Virus record (IMG/VR): IMGVR_UViG_3300018475_000095
DNA from: a virus
Taxonomy: Duplodnaviria > Heunggongvirae > Uroviricota > Caudoviricetes
Reading direction: 5' to 3' (one strand)
DNA: 64,000 nt
Below are positions 34,091 to 63,081 of this stretch, piece by piece. Both the position numbers and the translations under genes were made by a program. Under the pieces are notes generated by a model. That model worked only from the letters and a program-made list of their open reading frames with translations. It had not been told where the DNA came from and did no database searches. Positions within the stretch are counted from its first letter, which is position 1. Every line of letters begins with the position of its first letter.

Positions 34091-37000
34091 TTAACCTCAG
34101 AATATAATCCCATCTCTTAATGCAGATGGCTTATAAGGTGTAGCTGAACCAAATCCAAAATCTATTGGTTTAAACGCATTAGAATTAGATTGGTTATTTT
34201 CTTTAAATTTAGCATTATTTTCTTGTTTATTTTCAATAGAACTGCTTTTATCTAATATTTTTTGCTTTTGTTTTGATAGAGGATCTAGTAAATTTTTTAT
34301 CTCTTCTTCAAATTCTATATTTATTTGTTTTTTAGTATAACTATCATTTGCTGTAGCATTACTTACTTGTAATGTTGTATCTAAACTTTCTCCGAAATCA
34401 AAAGCAAATTGTTCTGCATTTTTAGATGCATTAAATAATGCTCCACATACAGCATCGCACACGTCTTTTCGTCCACCATCAGGGTGATCTACTTTTCCAG
34501 TATTTATATTTCTTTCTAGATCTATAATTTCATCAATTAAAGTTTTAGAATCATATATTTCTAGTCTTTTCTCATAAATTGTAGATTTAAAATTTTGATA
34601 AGGTTTACATATATGATCTGAATCTACTCTATCAACAGATAAAACACTATACTTATATCCTTTAGCAAGTAATGCTTGACCTGTATCATAACTTTGGAAA
34701 GTATCTGTCGTGATACCTTGAATATTAAATCCTTGTTCTTTTAACCAATAAATAAAATTTCTATTCTTTTCAAAAGATATTTGATATCCTTTTGGTGCTT
34801 TAATCGAAACTGAAAAAGCAAGAGTATAAAATAAATCATTTGATTGATTTTCAGTTGTACTTAGTTTTTTACCTTTAATCCAAACACCTGCAATACCAGT
34901 CATATCTCCGCTTACTGACATATCTAGATGAATAAACAAAGGTCTACTCTTTAATCTTTTATTTACTTTACTTAAATCAAATAAATCATAGTATTGTATC
35001 TTATCTTCTTGACTATTTCCTATTTCTAATATATCTTTAATAAATGGATTTTGTAATTCAAGATTTTTAATTTCTTGTACTGCAACACCAGAAATATATT
35101 TACTAATTTCACTTGATGATATACCAGCAAAGTCACATAATGCTCTTTCAATATCATCTAAAAAGTTTGATTTAAAATCTATAGGAACTTCAATTATTTT
35201 ATAGCCTTTATCTCTCCATATATCTACATCATCATTAGTAGGTATAACTTGAGACATCAAGAACTTATTTCCTAAAGCTACATTAAATGTTTCTTCTTTA
35301 TAAGTACCTTTTGGCTTAACTTTCCAAACAGGTTCATCAACAATTAAAACATTTTCTTTCTCAGATTTTAATTTCTTTTTAATATGCTCTTCAAGGAATG
35401 ATTTTTCACTTCGTTTCGAAGATGCTAAAGCAAGTAAAGTAGGATTTATACCTTTATAAATAAACCTTGTTTTCATACCCCCAATAGCGGTATCAATCAT
35501 ATTAATTGCTTTTTCTTTTTGTTTATCTATATCTTGATTTCTCATAAATGAAATTTCATCAAAGAAAGCAAAGAAAATAGGCAAACCAATCAAGTCATCT
35601 GCTTGGGAACCAATTATTATATTGATATAATCAGGTGGAACCCATTTTAAATTAGTCCTACCTTCCATAGTTCCTCTTGCCATAAACCATGGTGAAAGTT
35701 TTACTGTGTTTTGAAATTTACTAATACCAATTTCTTCTGCTAAAGCTAATTTAATATTCATAAAAGCAAAACATATTTTTTCAGTTGGTTTTAAGTGAAA
35801 AAATTCAATTGGGTTTTTCAAGCACATTATCCTGTACATTAGATAACAAGCAACAGCAACAGCGATTTCGGAATTATGTGTAACTATACAATTATCAGTT
35901 AAATACAAATGATCATCACTATTAATCATTATGCATTGACATTCAACTTTTCTAGACAATTCAATTGATTCTATAGCTCTACTAGGATTTAAAGAATTAG
36001 GATTAATTCTAGATAGTTTTCGTGATAATTTAAATGGTTTTATTTCTTTAGGTAATTTTATAGAGATAGTATAGCTTGTATTACATTCTATAACTTTCCC
36101 ATCTTTTTTATATTTACCTGTAACTTCTTTGTATTGAGCTACACCACCTAATGATTGTACTAGATAAATAAAATTGTCACAAAGTTGTGAACTGATTGTA
36201 TTAAATTGGATTGTTGATCCATTTTTTGTTATTGTACCATCAGTATCCATTAATCCTTGTAATAATTCAATTCTATCTTCGACTGAGCTATGTAAATAAA
36301 TATTTGGTATAAATTTATCAGCTGAAGATTTTATCAGATTTAAATCATGTAATGCTTCAACAAAAGGATTTGGTTCGGCGACAGGATTACCTTTAGGACC
36401 AACAGTAAATTTTTTTACTTTTTGAGAAAATATATATCCATACTTACATGATGGTAATGGGCTTATTTTTATGTTATCAAATGTTTTATCTAATTTATTT
36501 GATATATAATCGATTAATTCTTTATCTGCACTTGTTAATGAACATGAGTTTCTTCGGATACAGCCATCGCCTAAAATTACCCCTAATATATATGGATCAA
36601 TTAGTAGTTCTTTTTTCTCAAACTCAATTGGCTTAGTTACAGGTATATAATAAAGATGTTCTTTATATTTACCTTGTTTTACCTTAATTAATGGTTTGTC
36701 GAATAACTCTTGCAAATGAATAGTTTTCTTATACTTATAATTATTTTTTGGCAAAATTGTCCAAAGATGTTCTTTACAACATTCAGTAGTTGTTTTATCT
36801 GTAAAAGTTATTTTATAAACATCTTTAACACCTTGCGGAAAAATATGAGTGACGATATGTGGCTTACCATCCGCTCCAATTACATTCATACCAGGTTTAA
36901 TTGATCCCATAGGAATAAACCCATCAGATGTCATAACTTTACTATCTAATGGTTGTGCTTTACCTAAACCTCTTGCTCCTGATTCAATAAATGTATTTAC

Positions 37001-37276
37001 ACTAGTTGAAATATTATCCGGAAATAATTTTTTTAATTTTTCTCTTCAAAAAGGATATAATTTAGATTTACCTTCAGCATCATGTCAAGCATGTCCTAAA
37101 TAATTATTGTCATCTAAGAATGTTTCTATGTCTACGGGTATCTCGTTATAATCTGCGTATTTTAAATCTTCAAATACTTTAGAGGTACCTTCTTTTGAAA
37201 ATTCTTCTAAAATACTTAAAGCTAATTTTTTCTCTTCTTCTGAAAGATTATTTAATTCATCGAAATTATAAGTCAT
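34091..37276 (-). CDS. Terminase large subunit, 1061 aa precursor with intein; three in-frame TGA read as Trp
   Basis: One frame from ATG 37276 (AAGGAG) to TAA 34091 apart from TGA at 37085, 37046 and 34097; Walker A GARGLGK|S, FFDEIS Walker B, HLDMS and KDVCDAVCG nuclease motifs. Confidence 0.9.
35873..36958 (-). mobile_element. Class-3-type intein with LAGLIDADG homing endonuclease (362 aa)
   Basis: Starts Ala (GLGK|AQPLDSKV), ends VTHN|S; block B HLW, block F CQCI, block G T (WCT triad); LGVILGDG and LQGLMDTDG LAGLIDADG motifs. Confidence 0.9.
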
Positions 37277-37301: not shown

Positions 37302-38081
37302 TTAGTTATCAAATTTAAACATTTCACGTTCTCTAGGAGATAATTCAGACATTAAATCTTCAATATCTAATAAATCTTCTAAGTCATCTTTTTCTCTATC
37401 TGGATCTATATTTATTAGGTCATCTTCTATTTCATAACTTACATTATCTACTTGAATTATTATAGAAGGTTTCTTAGTTAATATAATATCCAAATCTTCA
37501 TAATCATAGTAATCTTTTAATTCTCTGTCTAAATGGTATCTTATTTCTTCGATAGCATCTTCATAACTGTCAAAAGTAAATTCCAATGCTCTATTAGTTA
37601 ATCTATTCAAACCTCTGAATATAGCTTGTTGTTTTTTATATTCCTTACCTTCAAGAGTTTCTCTTACAACTAGCACTGGATATTTCTTATCCCAACCAAA
37701 TAATTCTCCAAGAGTAAACATTCTATGTCTACCTTCTTGCATATTTTCAGCATAATTTAAAACTGTTATAGGAAATTTTTTCTTTTGTTTTAAGATAACA
37801 TTTTTTAAATGTTCAAGATCTTCTGATTCACGTTGAATTTGTTTATATTGCTTTTCAAAAGTGCTATCGAATATTTCTGCACATGCTTCAAAATATTCTC
37901 TAGGGCTAAGCATTTCAATAGAAGAAGTTGTTTTAAAATATTTATTTGTATTTTCTGGATCTCGTAAATAATCTGTATACTTTGACATTTCACTTTTTGT
38001 TACATCAAAATATTGATTATTTTCTATGTTACCAGTTCCATAATCATTTAAGTAAATTCTATTTTCTTTTAAAAATTTCAT
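37302..38081 (-). CDS. Protein with ParB/Srx-like motif
   Basis: PITVL...QEGRHR...YPVLVV ParB-N-type signature. Confidence 0.5.
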   Translation of the reverse strand: MKFLKENRIYLNDYGTGNIENNQYFDVTKSEMSKYTDYLRDPENTNKYFKTTSSIEMLSPREYFEACAEIFDSTFEKQYKQIQRESEDLEHLKNVILKQKKKFPITVLNYAENMQEGRHRMFTLGELFGWDKKYPVLVVRETLEGKEYKKQQAIFRGLNRLTNRALEFTFDSYEDAIEEIRYHLDRELKDYYDYEDLDIILTKKPSIIIQVDNVSYEIEDDLINIDPDREKDDLEDLLDIEDLMSELSPREREMFKFDN

Positions 38082-39385
38082 TAAAATACCTCTGTAATAA
38101 GAGCATCGTTTAATCTATCATTAAAAATGCTTTCGTCAAATTCCATTCAACTGTATTGAGGTTCTCTAAAATAGAAATCTTCTGCTGTATAATTAACAAA
38201 AGCTTCTTCTGTTGAACAACCTTTTATATAATCATATAGATCTAAAATATCTTTGTCTGTTAAATAGATTTCATAATGTTGAGTTTCTTGATTTGCTTTA
38301 TACTTAAAAGGTATAGCCTTATCTAAAGCTTTATTAAAATCCTTAACACATGCTTCTTGACTACCTACATTATATGCATCATTTACAGCCATATTGATAG
38401 CATCATGTAAAGCATCATTTTCATTTAATTCATTAATTAAATTATCTAAAGAAATATTATGATCTTTTAGTATTTCTTTATTTGTGTCATTTAAGTAAGT
38501 GGTGATAAAATCTAATTCTTCCGCTGAATATCAATAAGGTGTTCAATCTCATTGTTCATAAATATCACCGGTCATACAAGAAAGTAAAAAATCTTCTGAC
38601 CAAGTTCTGTTAGAAAGCCCTTCAGCTAATTTACTCATTCTAACATCTAAAATAGAATAATTATCATCGAAAGGTTTCAACCCTTCTAATTTCTCTCTGA
38701 TTAAAGGTTTATAAAAATTATATAAATTTTCATTACCTGAAGTTACAAAGAAAGATTTTACATCGATAGGATCATCATCCATATCCATAAAAGAACCTGA
38801 CTCAAAATGAAATTGATATTTATCATTAGTTCTTTTATTTATGTTTATATACAAAGGTCCTTGATCAGTATACATATCATAATAATAGTCACTTGAAGTT
38901 GATGCAGTACACCAACTTGTATCTCTACCTAACTTACAACTAGCTTCATAAGTTTTAGGAATATATACTTTTCAATTAGAGTCTTCATAAACTAATTCAG
39001 CGTCTTTTTCAATATCAGAAGCTCTTACAGCTTTTTGAGTCTGTCTTAATTCTTGTCTTTGAGATAGTTCTTTATATGAATTTTTATCATTTAGATAGTT
39101 ATCTAAATCTTCAAGAGATTTAAAAGTCATTATATCTTTATTTTTAAGATTTTTCTTATTCTCTTCAAATCTTTTTAATATATCGGTAACATGCCCAATA
39201 TTATCTAGTTTGTTTTTATTAGCAAGACTTAAAATCCATTTAGCATAAGTTCCTGCAATATCACCACCTTTATATGTAGGATCTAGTTGAATTAATGCTA
39301 AATATTTTTTATCATCAATTTTTGGAAAATATTTTTTTAAATCTCATATATCTTCCAATAATAATTCTTCTCTTAAAAATCGCAT
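38081..39385 (-). CDS. 434-aa phage protein hidden by six in-frame TGA (Trp); WCT-motif, PcfJ-like (tentative)
   Basis: ATG 39385 after AGAGGA; TGA at 39344, 38972, 38549, 38543, 38531 and 38147 all in frame; ends TAA overlapping next ATG (TAATG); joins track ORFs 38549..38875 and 38147..38392. Confidence 0.8.
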
Positions 39386-44611: not shown

Positions 44612-44899
44612 TTATATTAACCTCTCTACTGTTGGTTGTTCTATGGTAATATCTTGCCAAGAATCACCTAACCAAACATATGTATGACCTTTTATATAAG
44701 TTCCATCATCAATACATACATATGTATTATTTGCTCTTAAAAAAGCAGATAAAGAATTATCTAACAAAGCTTCATTCATTATACTATTAGATATACTATT
44801 TTCAGGTAAATCTTTTATTATATAAATTTTATCTGGGTCTATTAATTGCTGTTTTACTTGTTCAAGATTACCTTCCACTATTCCTTTTAAAAATGTCAT
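44612..44899 (-). CDS. Small fibre adaptor module (paralog family of four)
   Basis: YVCIDDGTYIKGHTYVWLGDSWQDIT motif shared with 47032, 53065 and 62764. Confidence 0.55.
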   Translation of the reverse strand: MTFLKGIVEGNLEQVKQQLIDPDKIYIIKDLPENSISNSIMNEALLDNSLSAFLRANNTYVCIDDGTYIKGHTYVWLGDSWQDITIEQPTVERLI

Positions 44900-44908
44900 T
44901 TATTTCTC

Positions 44909-46981
44909 CTATAAATTTTCAATGCCTGCGGCTTCTATAAACTCTTCATAAGTATAATTATATCTAATTGGTGCGTATGAGCCATTTCCTAGTTTATTAA
45001 ATTCAGTTGGCAATACAGATGATTTACTTGAAGAAGCTGTGTATATAACTGCATTGTCTTCATGTATACCAAAAAAGCTATTTAAAAATCTTTGGTCTGC
45101 ATATTGGTTTGTTTGAGGATTAAATGTTGTTATATTAGCTAAATCATAAAAATAAATATTTAATGGTTTTTCAGGTTCATAAGCTGATCTATAAAAGCAG
45201 TTAGCACCGATAGATTTAACAGTTGCAGGAACGATAATTAAATCTAACTTAGCACAAGGTCCAAAAGCATCCACTGCAATAGATGTAACTCCATCTGGTA
45301 TAATTATTCTTTGTATAGTATGGTCACAGTAGATTGCATGCTTTCCTATTGTTTTTAAGTTACTTGGTAATTGAAGAGATGTTAGATTTGTGCTTGTAAA
45401 ACACCTTTCACCAAGACTCAGCATAGAATCTGGAAGTAAAACATTTTCTAAATCAAAACAAGAATCAAATAAATAATTGGAACTATTTACATGACAAGCA
45501 GATATGTCTACTGATTTCAATGATTCGCAATAATAAAACGCTCCTTGGTTTATATTTCCACCTAAAACAACTAAATTTGTTAAAGAGTTAGGTAAATAAT
45601 AAGTTGTAGAGTAGTTATTGTAGTTACGAGCATCATAAGTTAAATCACTTGATGCAGTCCCGCTGAATAAAATAGCAAATGCTGTATCTGTAGAATAGGT
45701 TGTAGCAGTTCCAGTTGTCCCAACAAATGGTATAGTTAAGTTAGTCAAAGATGTACAATTTTTTAAAAGACCCGCTGTTAAACTAATAATAGATGTAGGT
45801 ATATATAAATCTGTCAAGCCACTGCAACCAGAGAATACATAATTGCCCAAAGATGTAATTGTATCTGGTATAGTTATATTTTTAAATCCTGTACAATTAT
45901 TAAAAGCATAACTTCCAATAGATGTAACAGAACTTGGTAGATTTAACTCTGTTAAAGATGTACAACCACTAAATGCATAATCACCGATACTTATTAAATT
46001 ATCATGCATATTTACATTAGTTAGATTAGTACAATTTTGAAAAGCATAATTACTTATATTAGTTATATTATTTGGAATTGTTATAGAAGATATATTTGAG
46101 CAACCTGAAAAAGCAAAATTTCCTATTGTGCTCAATGTTTCACATACACTTAAATCTATATTTTTTAATATAGTACAATTTTGAAAAGCTTTATCTGCTA
46201 TACCAGTAACTATATAATCAGCACCAGATTCGAAAGTACTTCTATACCCTATCATTTCTATTAATGTATCTACTGGCTGTGACATCATTTTGGATTGTAA
46301 CTCTGAGTAATTATTAAATTGCTGTTCACCAAAATACACAGGATAAGATAGTAATCTTGGTATATTCCAAAGAGCACCTGTTGAACCTTCTTTAGCTTTA
46401 AAAGATATTAATTTTGCGTCAGTTGGAAAATCAGTAGTTAAATTATTATATAATTCACTTGCCGTAGCGTATGTTTTTGAATTGGTAGAATTACTTAAAG
46501 TTATGTCATAGATTGCATCTTCACCGTTACTTATTATATTAGACCATATCCAGTTATAGCTATAATTTAAATCAGCACCTATAATTGTCTCAACTGAACC
46601 AATACTATATGTTCTAGGGATTACAATATTTTCATCTTCTCCTATATAATCAGTTATCAACCCTGCATCATTAAACATAAATAAACTTGCGTCTGTTGTG
46701 TAAGCATCATCACTTATAGCATCTATTGATATATTGTTTCCAAAATTAACTACAAAAGAAGAATTTATTTTTATTGATTTATTATTTAATTTAGCTTTTG
46801 ATAAAAAGTAACCATCATCAGGTGTAATTTCTATAGTGTAGTTTCCTAGAGATAACACTTTTTTACCCTGAGATATTTCATGTCCGTTCTCGTCTTTAAC
46901 TACAACAGATGTGTACTCAGAATTGATTATTAAATCACCTCTATAATTATCTGTTATTTGACTGCCTAATTTAATATTCAT
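44909..46981 (-). CDS. BspA/TpLRR (LRR_5) leucine-rich-repeat protein
   Basis: Repeats such as ITIPNNITNISNYAFQNCTNLT and LPSSVTSIGSYAFNNC. Confidence 0.9.
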   Translation of the reverse strand: MNIKLGSQITDNYRGDLIINSEYTSVVVKDENGHEISQGKKVLSLGNYTIEITPDDGYFLSKAKLNNKSIKINSSFVVNFGNNISIDAISDDAYTTDASLFMFNDAGLITDYIGEDENIVIPRTYSIGSVETIIGADLNYSYNWIWSNIISNGEDAIYDITLSNSTNSKTYATASELYNNLTTDFPTDAKLISFKAKEGSTGALWNIPRLLSYPVYFGEQQFNNYSELQSKMMSQPVDTLIEMIGYRSTFESGADYIVTGIADKAFQNCTILKNIDLSVCETLSTIGNFAFSGCSNISSITIPNNITNISNYAFQNCTNLTNVNMHDNLISIGDYAFSGCTSLTELNLPSSVTSIGSYAFNNCTGFKNITIPDTITSLGNYVFSGCSGLTDLYIPTSIISLTAGLLKNCTSLTNLTIPFVGTTGTATTYSTDTAFAILFSGTASSDLTYDARNYNNYSTTYYLPNSLTNLVVLGGNINQGAFYYCESLKSVDISACHVNSSNYLFDSCFDLENVLLPDSMLSLGERCFTSTNLTSLQLPSNLKTIGKHAIYCDHTIQRIIIPDGVTSIAVDAFGPCAKLDLIIVPATVKSIGANCFYRSAYEPEKPLNIYFYDLANITTFNPQTNQYADQRFLNSFFGIHEDNAVIYTASSSKSSVLPTEFNKLGNGSYAPIRYNYTYEEFIEAAGIENL

Positions 46982-47031: not shown

Positions 47032-47679
47032 TTATATTCTTGTTATTGTTAATGCATTTAATACTTCTAATGCTGTTATATTATTTTCAGTAGTAGTTAA
47101 CCCAACTGCTTGTAACTGCTCTGAATCATTTCTTGTTATAGTTACATTATCAACTTCTGCTTTAATTTCTTTATATGTACCATCATCAGAAAGATATTTA
47201 GTTCCATCTCCATTATTAATTAAAACGGATGTAGTAGTTTCTAATATAGAGATGTCTTGTTCTATGTTAGATATATCTCTTTCTGCTTCAACTATATCTG
47301 ATTGCACAGTATTTAGACCATTAATCAAATCATCTAATGAGCTATCTATCTGACTAAATTTTTGTGCTATATTTGTCCCAGTGCTGTCGGTTTCTGCTGA
47401 TGTTTTTGTTATGTCTTCCCAAGAATCCCCAGTAAATTTATATAAATTTCCTTTTATATACGTTCCATCATCAGCACACACAAAGACTTCATTTTTATTC
47501 ACAAAAGCTCTTATGAGAACATTATTTAAAATCTCTTGCATTTGATCATTTGTTATACCACTATTAGATGGAAAATCTTTAACTATATAAAGTTTGTCTT
47601 TATCTAGAGTTTCATTTTCAATTATTTGATTTATATCACCGTCAGATATACCTTTTAAATATTGCTCTGTAATAGTCAT
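47032..47679 (-). CDS. Fibre adaptor protein with coiled coil
   Basis: DDGTYIKG..YKFTGDSWEDIT module, heptad segment, GDGTKYLSDDGTYK and VDNVTITRN..LQAVG fibre motifs. Confidence 0.55.
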   Translation of the reverse strand: MTITEQYLKGISDGDINQIIENETLDKDKLYIVKDFPSNSGITNDQMQEILNNVLIRAFVNKNEVFVCADDGTYIKGNLYKFTGDSWEDITKTSAETDSTGTNIAQKFSQIDSSLDDLINGLNTVQSDIVEAERDISNIEQDISILETTTSVLINNGDGTKYLSDDGTYKEIKAEVDNVTITRNDSEQLQAVGLTTTENNITALEVLNALTITRI

Positions 47680-47691
47680 TTATGAATTCCT

Positions 47692-48051
47692 TTATAATTT
47701 TATATTGATTGTTAAATTATCTGTTACGCTTTCTATAAAAATGTTTCCATTAGAGTACACTATAGGTGTAATATTTAAGTTACCCATAAGTATCTCAACT
47801 ACAGCATTACTAATATCATAGCCCTCAAATGCAGTTATAGTAGCAGAAAAAGATTTTCTATCTAAGATATAATTAACTAATGTAGAACTAAAACAATTAG
47901 TTAAATTATAATCAACTTTAAATACTTTTCTAGCTTCTGCAATAATAGTTATATTACCATCTAATGGGCTGACTAAAATAGATGCAGCTTCACATTCTTC
48001 TGGTATTATTAACTTATTTTCAGCAAATAGTTGAATATTAATTCTCTTCAT
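47692..48051 (-). CDS. Small beta-rich protein with N-terminal INIQLFAE motif
   Basis: MKRINIQLFAENK; C-terminal part resembles bacterial B-repeat modules. Confidence 0.45.
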   Translation of the reverse strand: MKRINIQLFAENKLIIPEECEAASILVSPLDGNITIIAEARKVFKVDYNLTNCFSSTLVNYILDRKSFSATITAFEGYDISNAVVEILMGNLNITPIVYSNGNIFIESVTDNLTINIKL

Positions 48052-50917
48052 TTCCTACCTCTTCTTTTACTCTATACCAATAAGAAGTGACATAGTCACT
48101 TTTAAAATATTGAGCATTTAAACTTGCATCAGTTAAATCCACTTCTTCCCCACCAGTGTAATTTACATTAGTAGTCCTGTACCATCTACCTTCTCCTAAT
48201 ATATTTAATGTTGTAAGATTAGGACAATTATTAAAGCAATTATTTCCTATTTTTTCAACATTCTCATTAATAGTAATTTGTGTTAAATTTGCACAGTTAC
48301 TAAATGCACTTCCTTTTATAATTTTTACAGATAAAGGTAAATTTGCAGATGTAAAAGTACAATAACTAAAAGTTTGATAACCGATCTCTTCTAAAGATTC
48401 AAATCCATCTGGTTTAATACCAGATGATTGAAAACAATAATCTTTTGCTACTTTCAATTTAGGGGCTGTAACACTACTGAATTTATTACTACTAAACACA
48501 TAGTTACCAGCAGTGATTAAATTTGGGAAAGTAGCTACTTTATTTAAAGTTGAACTAACACCTGAAAAACATGAATTATCTAAAAATTCTAATTGGTTAT
48601 TAGATGGTATATTTAAAGATGTTATATAAGTTATATAATCTGTAGCTCTTTCTCCTATATATCTTAAACTTGATGGTATAGCCAAAGAAGTTATTCCTGC
48701 ATCCATGAATGATAATCCAGTTATACCTAAGAGACCATTAGGTAAAGAAACAGTTCTCAAAGCGGTTGCATCATGAAATCCTTCATGAATAAATTTACAA
48801 GAAGAATGAACGGTCATCGAAGAAGGAGTACTTGTTCTTCCTATCATTATAAAGTAAGCGTTTGAAACACTTCTTAAATACTTACCATATGAATATGTTG
48901 TATAAGGTAAACTTGTACATCCTCTAAATGCATAATTCCCTATATAAGTTATAGTATCTGGGATTCTTATATTAGATAATGATGAGCAGTTGTAAAACAT
49001 GTCATATGGAATAGATGTCATACTATCTGGCAAGGTTGCACTTCTTAAAGATGTTTGGCCCTCAAAAGTTCTTCCATAGTGATAATCAGGGTTACATCCA
49101 TCTTCAAAAGTACAAGAAATTAAGGTTGGGGTATAAGAACTAGTACCTTTTCCCATAACATAGTCTCCTAAATATTTTAAAGATTTAGGAAAGGTTATTG
49201 TTGTTAATTTATTCTGATATGCTAAAGCATAGCTATCAATCTTATTTATATTAGAATCTGCTTCAAAAACAAATGAAGATAAATTTATGCAACTTACAAA
49301 TGCATGTTGTTCTATGGTTTCAACACTCTTTGGTATAATTATTGAACTCAAATTTGGACAGTTGCTAAAACATGAAGTGCCTATAGTTTTACAAGAAGAA
49401 TTTATTTCGAATGTGCAAGTAACTATATTTGATTCCCTGAACGCTGCAGACCCTAATGACTCAACAGTATTAGGTATATTGATAGAACTTATCTTAGATA
49501 AATAAAAAGCAGAGCTTCCAATCTTTTTTATACCCATATCTAAAGGTATGATACTATTTTTTGTGCCTAATAATAAAATATTATTTGTAGTATCTATAAG
49601 ACAATTATTAACTGACACAAAATTTTTATTATGTAATACTTCTATAGTTTCTAAACTAGATGTATCACTAAAAATTCTCTCAGGTATTTCTTCTATGTTA
49701 CTTAATATGGTTAAATTTTTTACATTATTAGAAAAAGCATTTGCTCTAATTGCTTTTACTTTAAATTCAGATCCTTTGCCATAGGAATCAATAACCCCTT
49801 CAAAATTTATAGCAGTAGGAGATGTGTTACGCCACTCTATATATAAATTAGAATAAGTATCATATCTCACATCATTATAGTAAACAGGGTATATTAAAGC
49901 GTTAGCTATAGAATAATAAGCATTATTATTAGTTACATCGAATGAAATTAATTCAGCATCCTGATCTGGAAAATCAATATTTATACTATCATAAAAATCC
50001 ACTCCAGTGGTGTAAGTAATTTCTTTAGTTGAATTTTTTACAGTTATATTATTTGTATAATTTCTAAAGGAATAAATTTGAGAATAATCAAATTTACAAG
50101 TACTCACTGATATTTGATCAACGATAGAATAAGATCTTGGTATAACTATATTTTCTGAAGAGCCTACATATTTTGTTAAAGTATTCCCATCAAATTCAAA
50201 CAATGCAGGGTCTGTAGCTTCTGGGTCAAAAAATACTGATATTTCACTTATATCAACACCATTTTTTAATACTTTTATATTATCAAAATAATAACCTTCA
50301 GGAGCAATTAATTCACTCGAGTATTCATTTTTAATACTTAAAGCTGGGTTTTCTTCTAGTTCACAATCAGTTAATATAGCTTCTATTGAATAAGCGGTTA
50401 TAGATGCTTTATTTGTATTACCTAAATTATCTTTTGCCCAAACATAATAAGTACCTAAAGAATCAACTTCATACTCTCCTTCTAATTGTGTTTCAAGCCA
50501 GTAATCAGGTACCTCAGCATCTCTAGTTATATTATACCCAATGATTGGACTTTCATCAAAAATAGACCATTTAAAAGTAGTATTAGATATAGGAATAATA
50601 CTTATATTTAGGCCAACCGCTTCTACTGCTTCGCATATTATGTTTATATTTAAATCATTTTCAGGAAAAGTGCCGGGTTTATATAGAAATTTTTCACCAT
50701 TATTATATGGTATATTATTTATAAATATAGTTCTAATTTTAAAATCAGTATTAGGAATAGCATTTATAGTATAACTCTCATTATAAATCAACTTATTATT
50801 TCCAGGAGTAATTATATTGCCATTTGAATCTATTAATTCTATAATGGCATTTAATGCTTGCTCATTTAAATTACCTTTTAAATTAGATACTACTTTATCA
50901 CCTATTATAAATGCCAT
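48038..50917 (-). CDS. Large BspA/TpLRR protein (959 aa)
   Basis: Many xIPxxxxxIxxxAFxxCxxL repeats; N-terminal Ig-like modules (YYVWAKDNLGN). Confidence 0.9.
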   Translation of the reverse strand: MAFIIGDKVVSNLKGNLNEQALNAIIELIDSNGNIITPGNNKLIYNESYTINAIPNTDFKIRTIFINNIPYNNGEKFLYKPGTFPENDLNINIICEAVEAVGLNISIIPISNTTFKWSIFDESPIIGYNITRDAEVPDYWLETQLEGEYEVDSLGTYYVWAKDNLGNTNKASITAYSIEAILTDCELEENPALSIKNEYSSELIAPEGYYFDNIKVLKNGVDISEISVFFDPEATDPALFEFDGNTLTKYVGSSENIVIPRSYSIVDQISVSTCKFDYSQIYSFRNYTNNITVKNSTKEITYTTGVDFYDSINIDFPDQDAELISFDVTNNNAYYSIANALIYPVYYNDVRYDTYSNLYIEWRNTSPTAINFEGVIDSYGKGSEFKVKAIRANAFSNNVKNLTILSNIEEIPERIFSDTSSLETIEVLHNKNFVSVNNCLIDTTNNILLLGTKNSIIPLDMGIKKIGSSAFYLSKISSINIPNTVESLGSAAFRESNIVTCTFEINSSCKTIGTSCFSNCPNLSSIIIPKSVETIEQHAFVSCINLSSFVFEADSNINKIDSYALAYQNKLTTITFPKSLKYLGDYVMGKGTSSYTPTLISCTFEDGCNPDYHYGRTFEGQTSLRSATLPDSMTSIPYDMFYNCSSLSNIRIPDTITYIGNYAFRGCTSLPYTTYSYGKYLRSVSNAYFIMIGRTSTPSSMTVHSSCKFIHEGFHDATALRTVSLPNGLLGITGLSFMDAGITSLAIPSSLRYIGERATDYITYITSLNIPSNNQLEFLDNSCFSGVSSTLNKVATFPNLITAGNYVFSSNKFSSVTAPKLKVAKDYCFQSSGIKPDGFESLEEIGYQTFSYCTFTSANLPLSVKIIKGSAFSNCANLTQITINENVEKIGNNCFNNCPNLTTLNILGEGRWYRTTNVNYTGGEEVDLTDASLNAQYFKSDYVTSYWYRVKEEVGNEEN

Positions 50918-52904: not shown

Positions 52905-53044
52905 AATAATACCCATGTTTCATATATTACTAAGCTAGGTGCATATACTAACCAAAAATTTAATGGTGTAGTCATTGTAAATGCAATTGCTGTCATTGCT
53001 ATTAAAAATAAAATTCTGAATATTTTGTGTTTTAATTTAGTCAT
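52880..53044 (-). CDS. 54-aa two-TM protein (below track cutoff)
   Basis: ATG 53044; MTKLKHKIFRILFLIAMTAIAFTMTTPLNFWLVYAPSLVIYETWVLLCLKKYGA; TAA 52880. Confidence 0.5.
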   Translation of the reverse strand: MTKLKHKIFRILFLIAMTAIAFTMTTPLNFWLVYAPSLVIYETWVLLCLKKYGA

Positions 53045-53064
53045 CTTAAAATTGTCCTTTTAAA

Positions 53065-54099
53065 TTATTCTACTACTGCAACTGTATCACTTATCGTTGC
53101 TTGTGCTGTTGTCAATTGTATTATTTCAATTCCAGTTGATGTTGCTACTGTAAATTCAAAATAATTTCCCATATTATAATCAAAATATAATATAGTGCCT
53201 AAGAATGTACTATTTTCACTATATACATAACCACTCAATGGGTAATCAACTGCCCCTGTTATCATATTTATTAATTGTCCATAAGTAGTTACTAAAACAT
53301 TACTTCTATTTAAACCAACTACTCTAGCATTTATTTGTTGGCCAGAATCATTTGTGCCATTTATTGAGACATTATGCTTATATAAAGCAGCCTCTGCTTT
53401 TGTTGCAACTTGTTGACCATTTTGGTAGATAGTTTTACCATATATATTATTCCAAGGTAAAGCGGAAGTACCTAAATCAGCTGTACTTGTATTTGCTCTA
53501 ATAGAACTAGCTTGAAGAATTATTTGGTCTGTTGCTTTATTTAAATGCACACCCTGATTACTATTAGATAAAGTTATATTTCCCATCTGGAATGAGAATC
53601 TAGCAGTATCTTCATCCCCATTTTCATCTGTTATTGTACTTTCCCAATTCCATCCATCTTCAGTGAATACTTGAAAAGTATCACAATCTAAACTTAAGTC
53701 AGTAGCTCCTTCACCTATATGCAATGGTTTATTACTTTTTAAATATGCTACATCTGATACCGAATCAACGCTAAAGGTTAATTGACCACTATCTGAAACT
53801 AATGAGGAACTCCCTGTAGCACCAATACTACTTGAAATATCTATCCAGTTAGAGCTTGTTGTATCTTTATTAAATTTATATATATGTCCTTGCAAGTAGG
53901 TGCCAGAATCTTTACATATAAACACATCTCCTGTCTTGTATAAACTAGATTCTATGGTTGTAGCTAATTCCATATCCGCATTAGAGATACTATAATTAGG
54001 TAAATCTATTATAAAATATTTTTTACTTGAATCAATAGAAGATAAAGCTAAATATTGAGCTTTTGTACCATACCAATCTGCTTTATTAAGAACTTTCAT
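53065..54099 (-). CDS. Tail fibre protein with adaptor module and DLG...PWNNIYGK repeat
   Basis: KDSGTYLQGHIYKF...WIDIS module; TADLGTSALPWNNIYGKTIYQNGQQV fibre motif. Confidence 0.6.
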   Translation of the reverse strand: MKVLNKADWYGTKAQYLALSSIDSSKKYFIIDLPNYSISNADMELATTIESSLYKTGDVFICKDSGTYLQGHIYKFNKDTTSSNWIDISSSIGATGSSSLVSDSGQLTFSVDSVSDVAYLKSNKPLHIGEGATDLSLDCDTFQVFTEDGWNWESTITDENGDEDTARFSFQMGNITLSNSNQGVHLNKATDQIILQASSIRANTSTADLGTSALPWNNIYGKTIYQNGQQVATKAEAALYKHNVSINGTNDSGQQINARVVGLNRSNVLVTTYGQLINMITGAVDYPLSGYVYSENSTFLGTILYFDYNMGNYFEFTVATSTGIEIIQLTTAQATISDTVAVVE

Positions 54100-54102
54100 T
54101 TA

Positions 54103-54351
54103 CTACTCCTTAATTTCTTCGAATATGTCGTCAAAGCCTTCTTTCTCAATTTTAGTTTCTAGAGAGAAGTTAGGTTTGAATCCATAACCCATAAACATAT
54201 TATTAACGTATTCGTTACTCAAGTACCACTTATTGTTTGTATAAATAAAAGTACCCTCATTATCAATTAATGTTAATTCATTACCATTTGCTAATATATT
54301 ATTAGATATATTTTTAAAAGGTATTTTTATTTCGTCTTTTACCTTGAACAT
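54103..54351 (-). CDS. 82-aa hypothetical protein overlapping 3' end of DGR RT
   Basis: ATG 54351 after AAGGAG; overlaps RT by 38 nt. Confidence 0.5.
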   Translation of the reverse strand: MFKVKDEIKIPFKNISNNILANGNELTLIDNEGTFIYTNNKWYLSNEYVNNMFMGYGFKPNFSLETKIEKEGFDDIFEEIKE

Positions 54352-55327
54352 GTATATACTCCTTTATATAACCTTCAAATGAACCTTTATAATTGGTGTA
54401 TTGGTTGCTATTTATCCCATATTTTGATCTAAGGTATTTCTCTTTTCTAAATAAGTTCTTTCGAGTTTTATATGAATTTTTATTTGTTATTTTACCATTA
54501 GATTGTAAACGGAATTGAATTTTTAACCAAGTAAATTGTTTTAATTTACTGATAGTTGTCTTATTTTTATTTATAATTATTTTTAATTTATTACAAACTT
54601 CGTATATTACTCGCAGACAGTTTTTTAATTCTTCTTTACTACTGCATATCAGATAACAATCATCTACATATCTACCATAAAATTTAATATGTAATTTTTC
54701 TTTGATTAAATGATCTAACTCATTAACATAGAACAAAGAATTTATCTGCGAAATTTCGCTTCCTAATGCTATTCCTTTCTCTCTACTGGCTTTCTCTATA
54801 AAATGTTTATACAGATTATATATCTTATCGTCTTTTATATAATTTCTTGCTTTACTTAATAGAATATTATGATCTATATTATCAAAATATTTGCTAAAAT
54901 CTATCTTTAATATATAACCTTCATTAGTATGATATCTTTTATAGTATTTATTTAAATGTACAAATAATCTATCTAAAGTAAATATATAGCCTTTACCATT
55001 TATTGTAGCTCCATTATCATATATTAAGGATCTTCCGAGTAGATTGTTTAAGTAATATCTACATAAGCATTTTTGTACAATTCTTTCACTAATATGTGCA
55101 GCTTTTATATTTCTAGTTCTTCCTCTGCAGCTTTTAGTGAATTCAAAGTATCCAGGTGATTTGTAACTCCCAGCATGCAATTGTCTAAATATTCTATTTA
55201 CTAATCTATGCTTTTGAATTTCAAAATTTTGGATGCTTTGCTTTCATCTAACATTTCTAAAGCATAGATTAGCACAAACCAATAAATTTTTATATGTAAA
55301 AACTTCTTTAAAAGTTTTATTTTTCAA
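54314..55327 (-). CDS. DGR reverse transcriptase, 337 aa; in-frame TGA (Trp) at 55244
   Basis: TTG start 5 nt after AGGAGA; NVR*KQSIQ; AAHISERIVQK, YDNGA..GKG, LKIDFSKYFDNIDH, LGSEISQ, YGRYVDD motifs. Confidence 0.93.
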
Positions 55328-55481
55328 TATAATCTCCTATGTAATATTAGTTACTCCTAATCTTGAGTAAAATATATTAGGAGGTTTTTATTTTTAGCTT
55401 TTAATTGCTATGGAAGTGCGGTTCCTTTTATTAATTTAGCCGGTTTCAATAAATATCTACTATGTCTGGCATTATTTAAGT

Positions 55482-55588
55482 AAAATCAGAGAGGAACATA
55501 ATTACTATTCGTCATATTGTTGTTGTTCGAATAACCATTGTTGTTCCAATTACAGAAATTGTTCGAAGAAGAGTTAACGTAAGGGTAT
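55482..55588 (-). repeat. DGR template repeat (TR), 107 bp
   Basis: Aligns gaplessly to 56072..56178 (offset 590); 13 AAY codons in the VR frame; 16 mismatches, all at TR adenines. Confidence 0.97.
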
Positions 55589-55607
55589 AATCAACCGCAC
55601 ACCAATG

Positions 55608-56003
55608 TTATTTTGAAACTCGTTTCTTATCCGAGTTTATAACACCTTTAATTAATTTTTCTAGGTAGTCAGTTTTTTCAAATATCTTATTAAGCATTCC
55701 ATCTGTGATAGTATTATTATACTCCAATATGCATTCAAATTCAATAGAGAATAAATTTAAAGTGTGTAGAGCTTCTGTCAATAATTCTCTTCGTTTTTCA
55801 AAACTTGTTGTCAAATCACATTGATTAGCAAGTACGCAACATTGCATAACTCTATCTATTAATTTAAATGTTGATTGTAGCCCATAGAAAGTATATTTTT
55901 TAGAGAATTTATTAACAATAGTGCTTGCTACTAATTTTCTAAGCATAACACTTTCATAAACATATTGAGTTTTACTTAATGTTCTCATATACGATGGAAC
56001 CAT
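55608..56003 (-). CDS. avd: Accessory variability determinant (Avd-like four-helix bundle), 131 aa
   Basis: ATG 56003 after AAAGGA; between VR and TR; ANQCDL...KRRELLTEAL..L...LIKGVINSDKKR pattern. Confidence 0.85.
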   Translation of the reverse strand: MVPSYMRTLSKTQYVYESVMLRKLVASTIVNKFSKKYTFYGLQSTFKLIDRVMQCCVLANQCDLTTSFEKRRELLTEALHTLNLFSIEFECILEYNNTITDGMLNKIFEKTDYLEKLIKGVINSDKKRVSK

Positions 56004-56028
56004 GTTAAAATTTCCTTTTATATACTCA

Positions 56029-56050
56029 CTGTTCACCTTTCGGCGAACAG
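56029..56050 (-). other. DGR target-recognition hairpin with GAAA loop downstream of VR/IMH
   Basis: CTGTTCGCC-GAAA-GGTGAACAG, 13 nt past the target stop codon. Confidence 0.85.
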
Positions 56051-56063
56051 ATTATTTAGATTA

Positions 56064-57374
56064 TTAGATTGAAAAGCAGAGAGGAACAGAAAAACTAGTC
56101 GTCATATTGGTGTTGGACGAATAACCATGGATGTACCAAGTACAGAAATAGTTCGAAGAAGAGGGAACGTAAGGGGATCTAAGCCATCTAGCACTACTTG
56201 AGAATCTAAATAATATCTCGTTATAATTCTTAAATGCTTTAAATGTTTCTCCTTCAAGCCAGAATTTAGAGTAATCATCAAATCTCTTAGTGTCACCAAA
56301 TATATTGCTATCACTAGGTAGCCACATATAATCTTGAGTTGTTAATATTAAATCATCTGTGCTCACTGTAACCCCAGCACCACAACCTTGCCATGTTTTG
56401 ATATTTTTTAATCTTGGGCTAACTGTTCCTAATTGTTCTTTTAATGAAGCTAAGAACACACCATCTTCAGCAATTTCTGTTTTCTTGTAATATTTTGTTT
56501 CATTATTGTACTCATCTGGTAATAATACAGGAACAAATGTAGAAGCTTCTATTTCGTATTTATAATATGTACCATTTGTTGAATCAGTAACTGTCCAATC
56601 ATATATGTATTGAGTAGCGCCTGCTGGTAATGAATTTGTTCTTGGTATGCATCCCATCCAAGATATACCATTACTATTTGTTCCAGATGTATTAAACATT
56701 TTATATGTGCTATTGAAATTATAATAACAAAATATTAAGTTATTTTCTTCATCTATATGCACTAAATAAGCTCTGCTATATTCACTTGTTGCTCCTTTAG
56801 CCATAAAATTAGTTTGCATGTATTCAAATCCATCAAATTCAAATACATATTCTCCAAATCCTGCTTCAGAAATTTCCTGCAATTCTTCCCATGTATATTT
56901 TAAAGATTTATAAGTTGGTATGTAATTACCTATTGCAGATTTAGTTACTTCATTATAGTATTTCATAGTGCATTTGTATTGACCAACACCTTGTACATTG
57001 ATACTATTTTGCCATTTTTCTTCAGAATCTCTGGTTGCTTTTATTATATACTCACCATCATCAGTAACTGAAAACGCTACCACATAAGCTTCATCAGCAT
57101 TTGTTAGTGTTTGTAGTAAACTATCATCTTTGTACAAAGTAAAAGTTGTATTAGGTAGGTCTGCTGCTGTAATTATTCTATCCCCAGTTGCTTTTAATTC
57201 CGTAGTATTTATGATAGTTTGACCTGTTATATTGTTTATATTACCAATAATAGCAGGAATACTTGAACTATCTGGAATAGTTATACCTTTTGCTTTTAAA
57301 TTCTTAACGCCATCTTGTCTTGCAGTTTCTAAAATTGATGTAACTTTAAAAAGTTGACTTGCTGTCATTGTCAT
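56064..57374 (-). CDS. DGR target: putative receptor-binding protein with CLec/DUF6273-like C-terminal domain
   Basis: C-terminal VR; MWLPSDSNIFG...RWLRSP...VPLCFSI; start MTMTASQ after GGAGG. Confidence 0.9.
   Translation of the reverse strand: MTMTASQLFKVTSILETARQDGVKNLKAKGITIPDSSSIPAIIGNINNITGQTIINTTELKATGDRIITAADLPNTTFTLYKDDSLLQTLTNADEAYVVAFSVTDDGEYIIKATRDSEEKWQNSINVQGVGQYKCTMKYYNEVTKSAIGNYIPTYKSLKYTWEELQEISEAGFGEYVFEFDGFEYMQTNFMAKGATSEYSRAYLVHIDEENNLIFCYYNFNSTYKMFNTSGTNSNGISWMGCIPRTNSLPAGATQYIYDWTVTDSTNGTYYKYEIEASTFVPVLLPDEYNNETKYYKKTEIAEDGVFLASLKEQLGTVSPRLKNIKTWQGCGAGVTVSTDDLILTTQDYMWLPSDSNIFGDTKRFDDYSKFWLEGETFKAFKNYNEILFRFSSSARWLRSPYVPSSSNYFCTWYIHGYSSNTNMTTSFSVPLCFSI
56072..56178 (-). 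repeat. DGR variable repeat (VR)
   Basis: Encodes SPYVPSSSNYFCTWYIHGYSSNTNMTTSFSVPLCF at the C-terminus of the target. Confidence 0.97.
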
Positions 57375-57375
57375 A

Positions 57376-57600
57376 TTAATTATTTCCTCCAAATGCTAAT
57401 GTAGATAAAATACTGGATAATTCTTCTAAATTTTCTTCTGAATAATCCTGTTCATTTATCGTGTAATTTGTTTTATATAATTTAAAAGTCATATCATAAA
57501 ATTGAACAGCATCTTTAAATGTCATATCTCCCATTGAAACACATGACATAAGATTAAAGGTACTTCCAGAAGATGGACTTTTTACTATAACTTGTCCCAT
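57376..57600 (-). CDS. 74-aa hypothetical protein upstream of DGR target
   Basis: Start MGQVIVK at 57600 after GGAGG; coupled to neighbours. Confidence 0.5.
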   Translation of the reverse strand: MGQVIVKSPSSGSTFNLMSCVSMGDMTFKDAVQFYDMTFKLYKTNYTINEQDYSEENLEELSSILSTLAFGGNN

Positions 57601-57601
57601 T

Positions 57602-58759
57602 TTACACCTCCCAGTCACTTGCTAGGGCATCGTAGATATTATCACAAGTTAGATTTACGGACCCATTTGTTAAGCCAACTGCTTGAATGCTATCCGAGTT
57701 ATTTCTTGTTATAGTTGTGTTGTCTATATTTACAGAAGAACTATTTTCCCAAGTTGGTTCTTGATCTGGGCCGTTACTTGTTAGTACTTGACCAGATGTC
57801 CCTGAATTAACTGGAGCAATACTAGATTGATGTGTACTTATTTCTCCTGTAGCTTCTACTTCTGCTATTGTAAAGTAATTTGGTTGGAATGATAACTCAT
57901 TTGTTAACAAATCTATTTTTCCACCAATTAAATACAATAAATTGGTATTTGTCTTGTAAGTTAATATTGAATCATTTGCTGTTAGATTATTATCTGAGTT
58001 ATAAATAACTCCACTTATCGAATATAATTTATTTACTTCTAAATCATTGTATAAATTAATAGGAGTATCTTCGGTACCATTTAATTGTAGTAAAGCATCT
58101 GGCAAGTCTATCCAGGTTGGTGCAGCACTAGAGCCATTCGATTGCAATACCTGTCCTGTAATACCACTTGAAGTTGGAGCATAGATCATAATATTATTTT
58201 CACCATACTTTCCATTAAACATATTTATTGCGCAACCAGAACCTCCGCTAGTCATATATCCATTCTCATTGATATCAAAATATGATGAACCACCTAAACA
58301 TCGATTAAACCCATTAATAGAATAAATATAATTAAATGAAACTAGACTAGTACTATCTAATCTAAAAATAAATAGAGAATTATCTATAATATAAGTAGGA
58401 TTACTTTGAGAAGATGTCCCTACTATATAACCTTGTACATTATATAATTTATTTATTTCTAGGTTTTTACAATTTACAGGATTTGAACGTGTACCTGTTA
58501 TTACTTCTACCCCACTAATGGTTTTATAACTACCATCATTAGATAAAAATTGAGTACCATCTCCAGATATATCTATAACTTCTACTTTATCTTTATCTTC
58601 TTGAGTAAAATCAATAGTTGAATCTGGTGTTATATATAAAGTAGATGTTGGGTCAAATGTTAAAGTAGAACCATCTTTTAAGGTAAGAGTTCCTGTTGTA
58701 GATAATGTTAAATAATTTTCATTAGATAGTCTTACTATTCCTTTAAAATTTTGAGTCAT
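57602..58759 (-). CDS. Tail fibre protein with tandem GTSGQVL.SNG...PTW repeats
   Basis: SGITGQVLQSNGSSAAPTW and SGTSGQVLTSNGPDQEPTW; GDGTQFLSNDGSYK; IDNTTITRN..IQAVG; start MTQNFKG after AAGGAG. Confidence 0.75.
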   Translation of the reverse strand: MTQNFKGIVRLSNENYLTLSTTGTLTLKDGSTLTFDPTSTLYITPDSTIDFTQEDKDKVEVIDISGDGTQFLSNDGSYKTISGVEVITGTRSNPVNCKNLEINKLYNVQGYIVGTSSQSNPTYIIDNSLFIFRLDSTSLVSFNYIYSINGFNRCLGGSSYFDINENGYMTSGGSGCAINMFNGKYGENNIMIYAPTSSGITGQVLQSNGSSAAPTWIDLPDALLQLNGTEDTPINLYNDLEVNKLYSISGVIYNSDNNLTANDSILTYKTNTNLLYLIGGKIDLLTNELSFQPNYFTIAEVEATGEISTHQSSIAPVNSGTSGQVLTSNGPDQEPTWENSSSVNIDNTTITRNNSDSIQAVGLTNGSVNLTCDNIYDALASDWEV

Positions 58760-58770
58760 TATTTTCTCCT

Positions 58771-58784
58771 TAATAAATTTAGCA
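58771..58784 (-). promoter_or_regulatory. Putative late promoter motif TGCTAAATTTATTA (copy 3)
   Basis: Exact copy abutting the RBS of ATG 58759. Confidence 0.55.
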
Positions 58785-58791
58785 GATATCT

Positions 58792-59304
58792 CTAACAACT
58801 AAGTATACTTAACCCATAATTTCTATCACTACTTGATAATGCAAGTTCATTAAAATCACAACCAATAGCATATTTTTCACTTACTACATGTTGATAATTA
58901 AGTGATAATCCATAAATGTTATTTTCTGCTATTTCAAATGACCCTACTGCATCAATAGTTTCAAAAGGGCACTGTATTCTTGAATTTGAAATACCTATTA
59001 CTTTACAAGGAAGATATGTTCTTTGAGTATCATTTAATAATTGTAAATTAATGTTATAAGGCTCTATTTCCATTACATTTGGGTCATATCCGTATGATGG
59101 CACACTTGCACCTAATGTATACCCAATATATTTTAAAGTAAAACTTACGGATTTGTTTTCATTAAATTTTGTTTGTAATAAATTATATATTTCTGGAATA
59201 GTTGAAGTATCAGTTTTTAATATATCTATTTTTGAGCTTAAAGGTATACTAACACCATCTACTTCAAACTCGCTTATTGGTGTTGTCGTGTCTAAATTAC
59301 TCAT
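58792..59304 (-). CDS. Hypothetical fibre-cluster protein
   Basis: N-terminal EVDGVSIPL resembles TVDGVTMEL of the neighbouring gene. Confidence 0.45.
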   Translation of the reverse strand: MSNLDTTTPISEFEVDGVSIPLSSKIDILKTDTSTIPEIYNLLQTKFNENKSVSFTLKYIGYTLGASVPSYGYDPNVMEIEPYNINLQLLNDTQRTYLPCKVIGISNSRIQCPFETIDAVGSFEIAENNIYGLSLNYQHVVSEKYAIGCDFNELALSSSDRNYGLSILSC

Positions 59305-62763: not shown

Positions 62764-63081
62764 CTAATCCTCCACTATAACTGCTTTTGGTAATAATGCA
62801 TCTATTTCTGATTTAGTGTATGCATAGCTTATATCTTCCCAACTATTACCAGTGAACTTGTAAACATGCCCACTTAAATATATGCCATCATCATAACAAA
62901 TAAATATACTACCCACATCATATAAAGAAGCTTCAGTAGATGTTGCTAGTTCCATATCAGCACTACTTATTCCAAATGTAGCTAAGTCGGTTATGTAATA
63001 AGATTTATTTGTTTCTATTTCTGCTAGTTGTAAGAATTTTTCCTTTGTTCCTACCCAAGCTTGTTTATTTAATTGTTCCAT
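62764..63081 (-). CDS. Small fibre adaptor module (paralog family of four)
   Basis: ISSADMELATSTEASLY...CYDDGIYLSGHVYKFTGNSWEDIS, close to the N-terminus of 53065..54099. Confidence 0.6.
   Translation of the reverse strand: MEQLNKQAWVGTKEKFLQLAEIETNKSYYITDLATFGISSADMELATSTEASLYDVGSIFICYDDGIYLSGHVYKFTGNSWEDISYAYTKSEIDALLPKAVIVED

Follow-up and report, generated by a model that had tools for sequence, protein, structure and literature searches.

We analyzed a 64,000-nucleotide stretch of a Caudoviricetes genome (IMG/VR record IMGVR_UViG_3300018475_000095), hereafter the window, and conclude with high confidence that it holds a complete diversity-generating retroelement (DGR) of the BPP-1 type, recently active and carried by a phage of roughly 154 kb that reads TGA as tryptophan (Trp; genetic code 4). 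A DGR-type reverse transcriptase (RT), a target gene with a variable repeat (VR) at its 3' end, an accessory protein of Avd-type fold, adenine-only differences between the VR and its template repeat (TR), and natural diversification of the target were all observed. The DGR itself is canonical, and knowledge of how DGRs work is unchanged by it. A first inspection of the letters alone (the sequence-only reading) had proposed a complete, apparently active DGR acting on a phage receptor-binding protein, with its parts in BPP-1 order and an RT carrying the motifs YVDD and LGSEISQ. This order and both motifs were confirmed on the minus strand, on which all genes of the 64 kb lie (G+C about 28%). Along that strand the target gene comes first, followed by avd, the TR, a spacer of about 150 nt and the RT gene:

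57374-56064, minus strand: DGR target gene (P0002, 436 aa), with N-terminal helices, an Ig-like beta-sandwich at about residues 64-137 and a C-terminal DUF6273-type domain at about 167-436
56072-56178, minus strand: VR, ending 6 nt before the target stop codon and encoding residues 400-435 of 436
56029-56050, minus strand: hairpin with a 9-bp stem and a GAAA loop, 21 nt downstream of the VR
56003-55608, minus strand: avd-like gene (P0003, 131 aa), modeled as a four-helix bundle and lying between target and TR
55482-55588, minus strand: TR, aligning to the VR without gaps over 107 nt
55328-55481, minus strand: TR-RT spacer, a structured RNA similar to the Rfam motif RT-2
55327-54314, minus strand: DGR reverse transcriptase (P0001), 337 aa from a TTG start behind an AGGAG site

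Repeats and their natural alleles

The two repeats differ at 16 of 107 positions, and all 16 differences fall on adenines of the TR (10 A to C, 6 A to T). Recomputation thus reproduced exactly the alignment and the hand count of the sequence-only reading, and its borders are also right, since the two bases further upstream (to 55590) are already non-adenine mismatches. With 35 adenines among the 107 TR positions, the probability that every mismatch would fall on an adenine is 9.4e-10. Were the repeats ordinary duplicates that had diverged by point mutation and selection, without reverse transcription, then the existence of the repeat, and nothing more, would be accounted for. A probability of about 1e-9 for 16 of 16 differences on the adenines of one copy, the placement of that adenine-bearing copy in non-coding DNA between an Avd-like gene and a DGR-type RT, and the obedience of between-sample differences to the same adenine rule (see below) leave ordinary duplication effectively refuted, with a negligible probability. 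With adenines masked, neither strand of the window yielded a second VR; the next-best site has at least 36 non-adenine mismatches.

Read in the VR frame, the TR contains 13 AAY codons (7 AAC and 6 AAT), as had been counted before, among 21 codons that contain adenine. These 21 diversifiable codons give a coding capacity of about 4.8e19 protein variants under code 4. The earlier statement that no adenine substitution can create a stop codon holds for the AAY codons and fails at codon 433 of the target frame, where the TR itself has an in-frame TGA (TR 55486) opposite TGC in the VR (VR 56076). The VR codon specifies the conserved cysteine (Cys) of a C-terminal LCF motif. Under the standard code, a faithful copy of the TR at this codon would shorten the target by four residues. 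The TGA is harmless under code 4 only, where it would be a Trp/Cys toggle instead of a stop. The same TGA/TGC pair, which is the last mismatch of the alignment, recurs in a sister phage of which we compared two copies, L002 (149-kb contig, ENA ERZ28614111) and L003, and in a standard-code relative, L004 (139-kb contig, GCA_019971425.1); L002 and L004 each have a TR/VR pair of their own. This difference may be a fixed marker between the initiation of mutagenic homing (IMH) site and its counterpart IMH*, or a position under strong selection, and this one mismatch of the 16 perhaps reflects such a fixed IMH/IMH* difference instead of mutagenesis.

Activity was judged from public assemblies, that is, from consensus sequences, of near-identical copies of the phage and of its sister. 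Samples containing the phage include ENA ERZ27247464 and ERZ27248446, JGI 3300022753 and SRR7031497. The 90% cluster of the target protein had four members. P0171, encoded on a 154-kb contig of a different ENA sample, has ten residues that differ from those of the window's target, all of them within 402-429 and none elsewhere in the 436, and every old and new residue is reachable by changing only adenines of the TR codon (checked at the protein level). P0172 has a single changed residue, 404. The DNA that encodes it (L007, a JGI metagenome contig of a different sample) shows 3 differences from the window in 9311 bases, two of them at VR positions 56164-56165, opposite TR adenines 55574-55575, and its TR and RT, including the TGA discussed in the next section, are identical to those of the window. 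P0173 carries K29E only, outside the VR, and L001, from a further ENA sample, has the window's VR allele with 2 single-nucleotide polymorphisms in 10.6 kb. There are thus three VR alleles on near-identical backbones. Where DNA was compared, the backbone is at least 99.97% identical among the allele-bearing copies, and every other copy of the phage with DNA for comparison has the same TR. The sister phage behaved in the same way: its copies L002 and L003, from different samples, have identical TRs, and of the 17 differences between them over 8 kb, 13 lie in the VR, all at TR adenines.

The fact that otherwise near-identical genomes carry different VR alleles indicates that the element was active very recently. 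All allele-bearing copies retain a 288-aa RT call under code 11, and therefore the TGA in the RT gene. Sequence comparison accordingly places retrohoming after the divergence of these near-identical genomes, in lineages whose RT carries the TGA. The description of the DGR as complete and apparently active holds, because all DGR parts are present and the natural VR alleles of the same phage differ only at TR-adenine codons; completeness needs one qualification that had been passed over, namely that the RT is whole only under code 4. A blastn search with 53000-58800 against the phage collection gave no match, and a search with the target found no further copies of its locus in IMG/VR or among JGI metagenome contigs.

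A reverse transcriptase gene with an in-frame TGA

The TGA of the RT gene lies at 55244-55246 (codon 28; residue 30 of P0001). Under code 11 it cuts off a 5' extension, and the open reading frame (ORF) begins only at 55180 and encodes 288 aa. The extension is clearly part of the RT, because the PHROG 1423 reverse transcriptase profile runs across the TGA, covering residues 6-329 (E 7e-65), and because in an alignment with 59 homologues the TGA column, within a VxWKxS motif, is Trp in 57 of 58. A complete RT therefore requires TGA to be read as Trp. The remainder of the protein is well preserved. Pfam RVT_1 matches it, its best PDB sequence match is the BPP-1 bRT (8ub7_A), with GxxxSQ and YxDD motifs aligned, and the LGSxxSQ and YxDD columns are conserved in 58-59 of the 59 homologues. 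Of 80 columns with conservation of at least 90% in the homologues, it agrees with 69, and we saw no lesion other than the TGA. The closest relative is P0005 of L002 (52% identity), and the L004 RT is 50% identical; tblastn matches include phages Roos, Pioen, Lelie and nd12 at 27-31% identity. In the public protein collections searched, the RT is listed as a truncated 288-aa protein, and annotation pipelines can mis-size such RTs.

A TGA at this position could also mean that the DGR is decaying: a TGG-to-TGA nonsense mutation would have made the RT a pseudogene and left the TR/VR pattern as a relic. Such an explanation would fit the loss of the conserved N-terminal VxWKxS segment from the 288-aa code-11 product, the rarity of TGA as a Trp codon in the window (about 13 in-frame cases concentrated in six genes, the large majority of Trp codons being TGG), and the presence of the same VR allele in many assemblies. 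If the RT were a relic, however, the TGAs at Trp positions of an essential gene, the terminase large subunit, would not be explained. The reading frame of this subunit stays open only when two N-terminal TGAs (37085-37087 and 37046-37048) are translated, and both align to Trp in the 70%-identical terminase of L004, which has no in-frame TGA. UGA must be decoded in the phage, because the essential terminase has TGAs at Trp positions. Nor would a relic account for the sister phage, whose RT has a TGA at the same Trp as the window's RT while its VR varies between samples, or for VR alleles that differ among TGA-carrying genomes otherwise at least 99.97% identical; non-adenine mismatches and further RT lesions are absent as well. 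Given VR turnover in TGA-carrying lineages together with TGA decoding in the terminase, we rejected the pseudogene and regard decay of the DGR as very improbable.

The pattern in the rest of the window agrees with this reading of the code. The genes for a VTT-domain membrane protein and for the product of 38081-39385 are continuous across TGAs, and TGA is not required to terminate any ORF: the two that finish in TGA have TAA within two codons. On the sequence evidence we conclude that the phage reads TGA as Trp. In L002, TGA stands for nearly all Trp codons in most genes, and a few genes have TGG only. L002 and L004 have the same DGR layout with opposite codes, and the window's phage lies in between, with sparse TGA.

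A more speculative role for the RT codon is that a single UGA at an invariant Trp near the N-terminus acts as a translational gate, with full-length RT made only once an opal suppressor tRNA is expressed. We think this unlikely. If true, tropism switching would be coupled to the late-stage code switch that also licenses the terminase.

Two of the TGA-containing genes have features of their own. The terminase large subunit (34091-37276, minus strand) is 1061 aa long under code 4 versus 691 aa in L004, and the alignment to L004 stops directly after the Walker A motif (GARGLGK). The extra part contains a LAGLIDADG homing-endonuclease domain at residues 325-407 (Pfam LAGLIDADG_3, 1e-9; Hom_end, 2e-6) and, judged from its sequence, looks like an intein inserted at the P-loop. 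The ORF at 38081-39385 (minus strand; 434 aa) is open only under code 4. It has six in-frame TGAs, three of them within seven codons (38533-38551), and matched no Pfam family.

Target, accessory protein and RNA elements

The structural model of the target (pLDDT 88) places the VR residues on C-terminal strands and loops of the DUF6273 domain. Among 1.84 billion proteins the small target family has 45 representatives (E <= 1e-3), and Pfam DUF6273 (PF19789) was matched by 25 of 32 target homologues. P0002 itself gave no DUF6273 match at E <= 0.1, and the precomputed match for allele P0171 is described as faint only; the C-terminal domain nonetheless shares homology or fold with bona fide DUF6273 domains. 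In gut phages, DUF6273 has been reported as a domain targeted by DGRs, with the VR at its C-terminal end (PMC11792537, PMC10743442), and has been described as C-type-lectin-like (PMC10743442). Our fold searches with the target found no match to Mtd or another C-type lectin fold, the target profile found no match among PDB sequences, and Foldseek against the PDB matched the Ig-like domain only.

The sequence-only reading had called the target a phage receptor-binding protein. The domain and its context are consistent with that role, and a receptor-binding or adhesin function is a reasonable inference from the DUF6273 domain, from automatic names of structural neighbors and from an adhesin/fiber-like gene block. 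The neighbors of the target in the ESM Atlas and BFVD are viral DUF6273 proteins, some of them fused to BppU_N, collagen, LRR or Ig modules, and some carry the automatic names tail-collar fiber or receptor-binding protein. The gene itself belongs to a block whose paralogous members have N-terminal modules in common and which also encodes BspA-type LRR proteins. The target is probably a phage surface protein of the tail or a fiber.

An active DGR might instead diversify something other than a host-receptor-binding protein, such as an accessory adhesin that binds mucus or other surfaces, or a protein outside the virion. Pfam, PHROGs and NCBIfam place neither the target nor its immediate neighbors in a tail family, the Ig-like domain is of a kind found in decoration proteins and adhesins, BspA-type LRR proteins are close by, and the only solved DUF6273 domain that was matched comes from the N-terminus of a bacterial IgA peptidase, where it has been named DUF6273 (PMC12402451). 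The fusions of DUF6273 to BppU_N, collagen and fiber-type modules in viral ESM Atlas clusters, the automatic names of the BFVD neighbors and the published reading of DUF6273 DGR targets as receptor-binding proteins (PMC10743442, PMC11792537) argue in the other direction. We consider such an alternative role for the target unlikely, and a receptor-binding or adhesin protein remains the preferred reading. A small, defined DUF6273 target family with three natural alleles could serve for testing how VR changes alter binding.

Several neighboring genes of this block are related to one another. Four of them (62764-63081, 53065-54099, 47032-47679 and 44612-44899, all minus strand) share an N-terminal module of about 85-90 aa at 33-53% identity and have unrelated C-termini. 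This module may serve them as a shared attachment domain onto which interchangeable distal parts are joined. Two large paralogues (48038-50917 and 44909-46981, minus strand) contain BspA-type leucine-rich repeats (Pfam LRR_5, E 3e-73 and 1e-85). LRR_5 and DUF285 genes also flank the DGRs of L002 and L004.

Between target and TR, the Avd-like protein is modeled as four helices (pLDDT 81). Its best Foldseek matches in the PDB are 2rld and 2gsc (TM 0.65-0.85), and BPP-1 Avd chains 8ub7_B/C are matched at TM 0.69-0.80. The gene is kept at the same position in L002 (44% identity) and L004 (37%). A word-index search found no homologues, and a three-sequence profile gave nothing meaningful among PDB sequences. 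The correspondence to Avd, which depends on a predicted model, is one of fold and position only.

The GAAA-loop hairpin that the sequence-only reading had placed after the VR was recovered there. It folds at -7.9 kcal/mol (z = -4.4), and none of 200 shuffled sequences folded equally well. L002 and L004 each have a hairpin at this position, with a stem of different sequence and a loop of GGAA or GAAA. By analogy with the BPP-1 hairpin/cruciform, it is likely a target-recognition element. The match of the spacer to Rfam RF03077 (RT-2), at 55334-55474, scores 28.8 bits (E 4e-4) and falls short of the family's gathering score of 40; the same spacer scores 36.4 bits in L004 and 24.4 bits in L002, both also below 40. 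It thus resembles RT-2 without reaching curated membership of RF03077. A three-sequence alignment showed small conserved hairpins, and the spacer is probably the 3' part of the DGR RNA.

Proposed mechanism and comparison with known systems

Several observations weigh against the conclusion that this is a complete, recently active BPP-1-type DGR in a TGA-recoded phage. The window's VR allele is by far the commonest, its exact P0002 sequence being indexed in 33 blocks of the collection, and dominance of one allele may reflect slow turnover or related samples. The RT deviates at 11 of the 80 strongly conserved columns, including E to C in an ERGK-like motif and G to A before LGSEISQ. The Avd-like protein matched no sequence family (Pfam, NCBIfam, PDB sequences), and Foldseek gave its fold matches weak E-values (0.015-0.6). 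At the 3' end of the VR we saw no clear G+C-rich IMH, and the 64-kb window contains no tRNA, so that a TGA-suppressor tRNA was not seen there.

By analogy with BPP-1, for which adenine-specific copying of the TR RNA and replacement of the VR are established, the avd-TR-spacer-RT unit would be transcribed, and the RT together with the four-helix Avd-like protein would copy the TR RNA, primed from the structured spacer, with misincorporation opposite adenines. The resulting cDNA would then take the place of the VR in the 3' part of the upstream gene, with the 3' end common to both repeats and the GAAA hairpin just downstream guiding the exchange. Up to 21 codons, 13 of them AAY, would in this way be diversified in the DUF6273 ligand-binding domain of a surface protein. 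Full-length RT needs one UGA decoded as Trp, and the terminase likewise depends on such decoding.

The BPP-1 DGR (mtd-avd-TR-spacer-brt) is alike in its adenine-only substitutions, its GAAA-loop hairpin after the VR, its four-helix-bundle accessory protein and an RT with GxxxSQ and YxDD motifs, bRT (8ub7_A) being the best PDB sequence match. The present locus differs from it in having a DUF6273 plus Ig-like target instead of Mtd, a very divergent Avd-like protein with no detectable sequence similarity to the Avd family, no evident G+C-rich IMH, and an RT gene that needs UGA as Trp. The DGRs of gut Firmicutes phages (Faecalibacterium phages Lelie, Roos and Pioen; nd4/nd12; PMC11792537, PMC10743442) share the DUF6273 target with the VR at the C-terminal end of the domain. 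Here, in contrast, the phage is about 154 kb and TGA-recoded, its relative L004 has a T4-type portal and protease, and the target combines N-terminal helices, an Ig-like domain and DUF6273.

The Agate and Jade clades of TGA-recoded gut phages (bioRxiv 10.1101/2021.08.26.457843) resemble the present phage in being large and in having in-frame TGAs in late genes and in genes for packaging. Closely related phages with the standard code and with recoded TGA, here L004 versus L002, are known for the Agate clade from the same study, in which DGRs and reverse transcriptases are not mentioned. The likeness is one of description, and TGA is sparse in this window. For the RT, the nearest parallel is found in TAG-recoded persistent infant-gut phages (bioRxiv 10.1101/2023.08.07.552389), for which DGR RTs with in-frame recoded TAG codons have already been published. 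There, too, the DGR RT gene contains a recoded stop, the target next to it is diversified and the VR differs from sample to sample. The difference is that the recoded stop here is TGA (Trp) and not TAG (Gln), that none lies in the target gene, and that the RT has a single one, at an invariant Trp.

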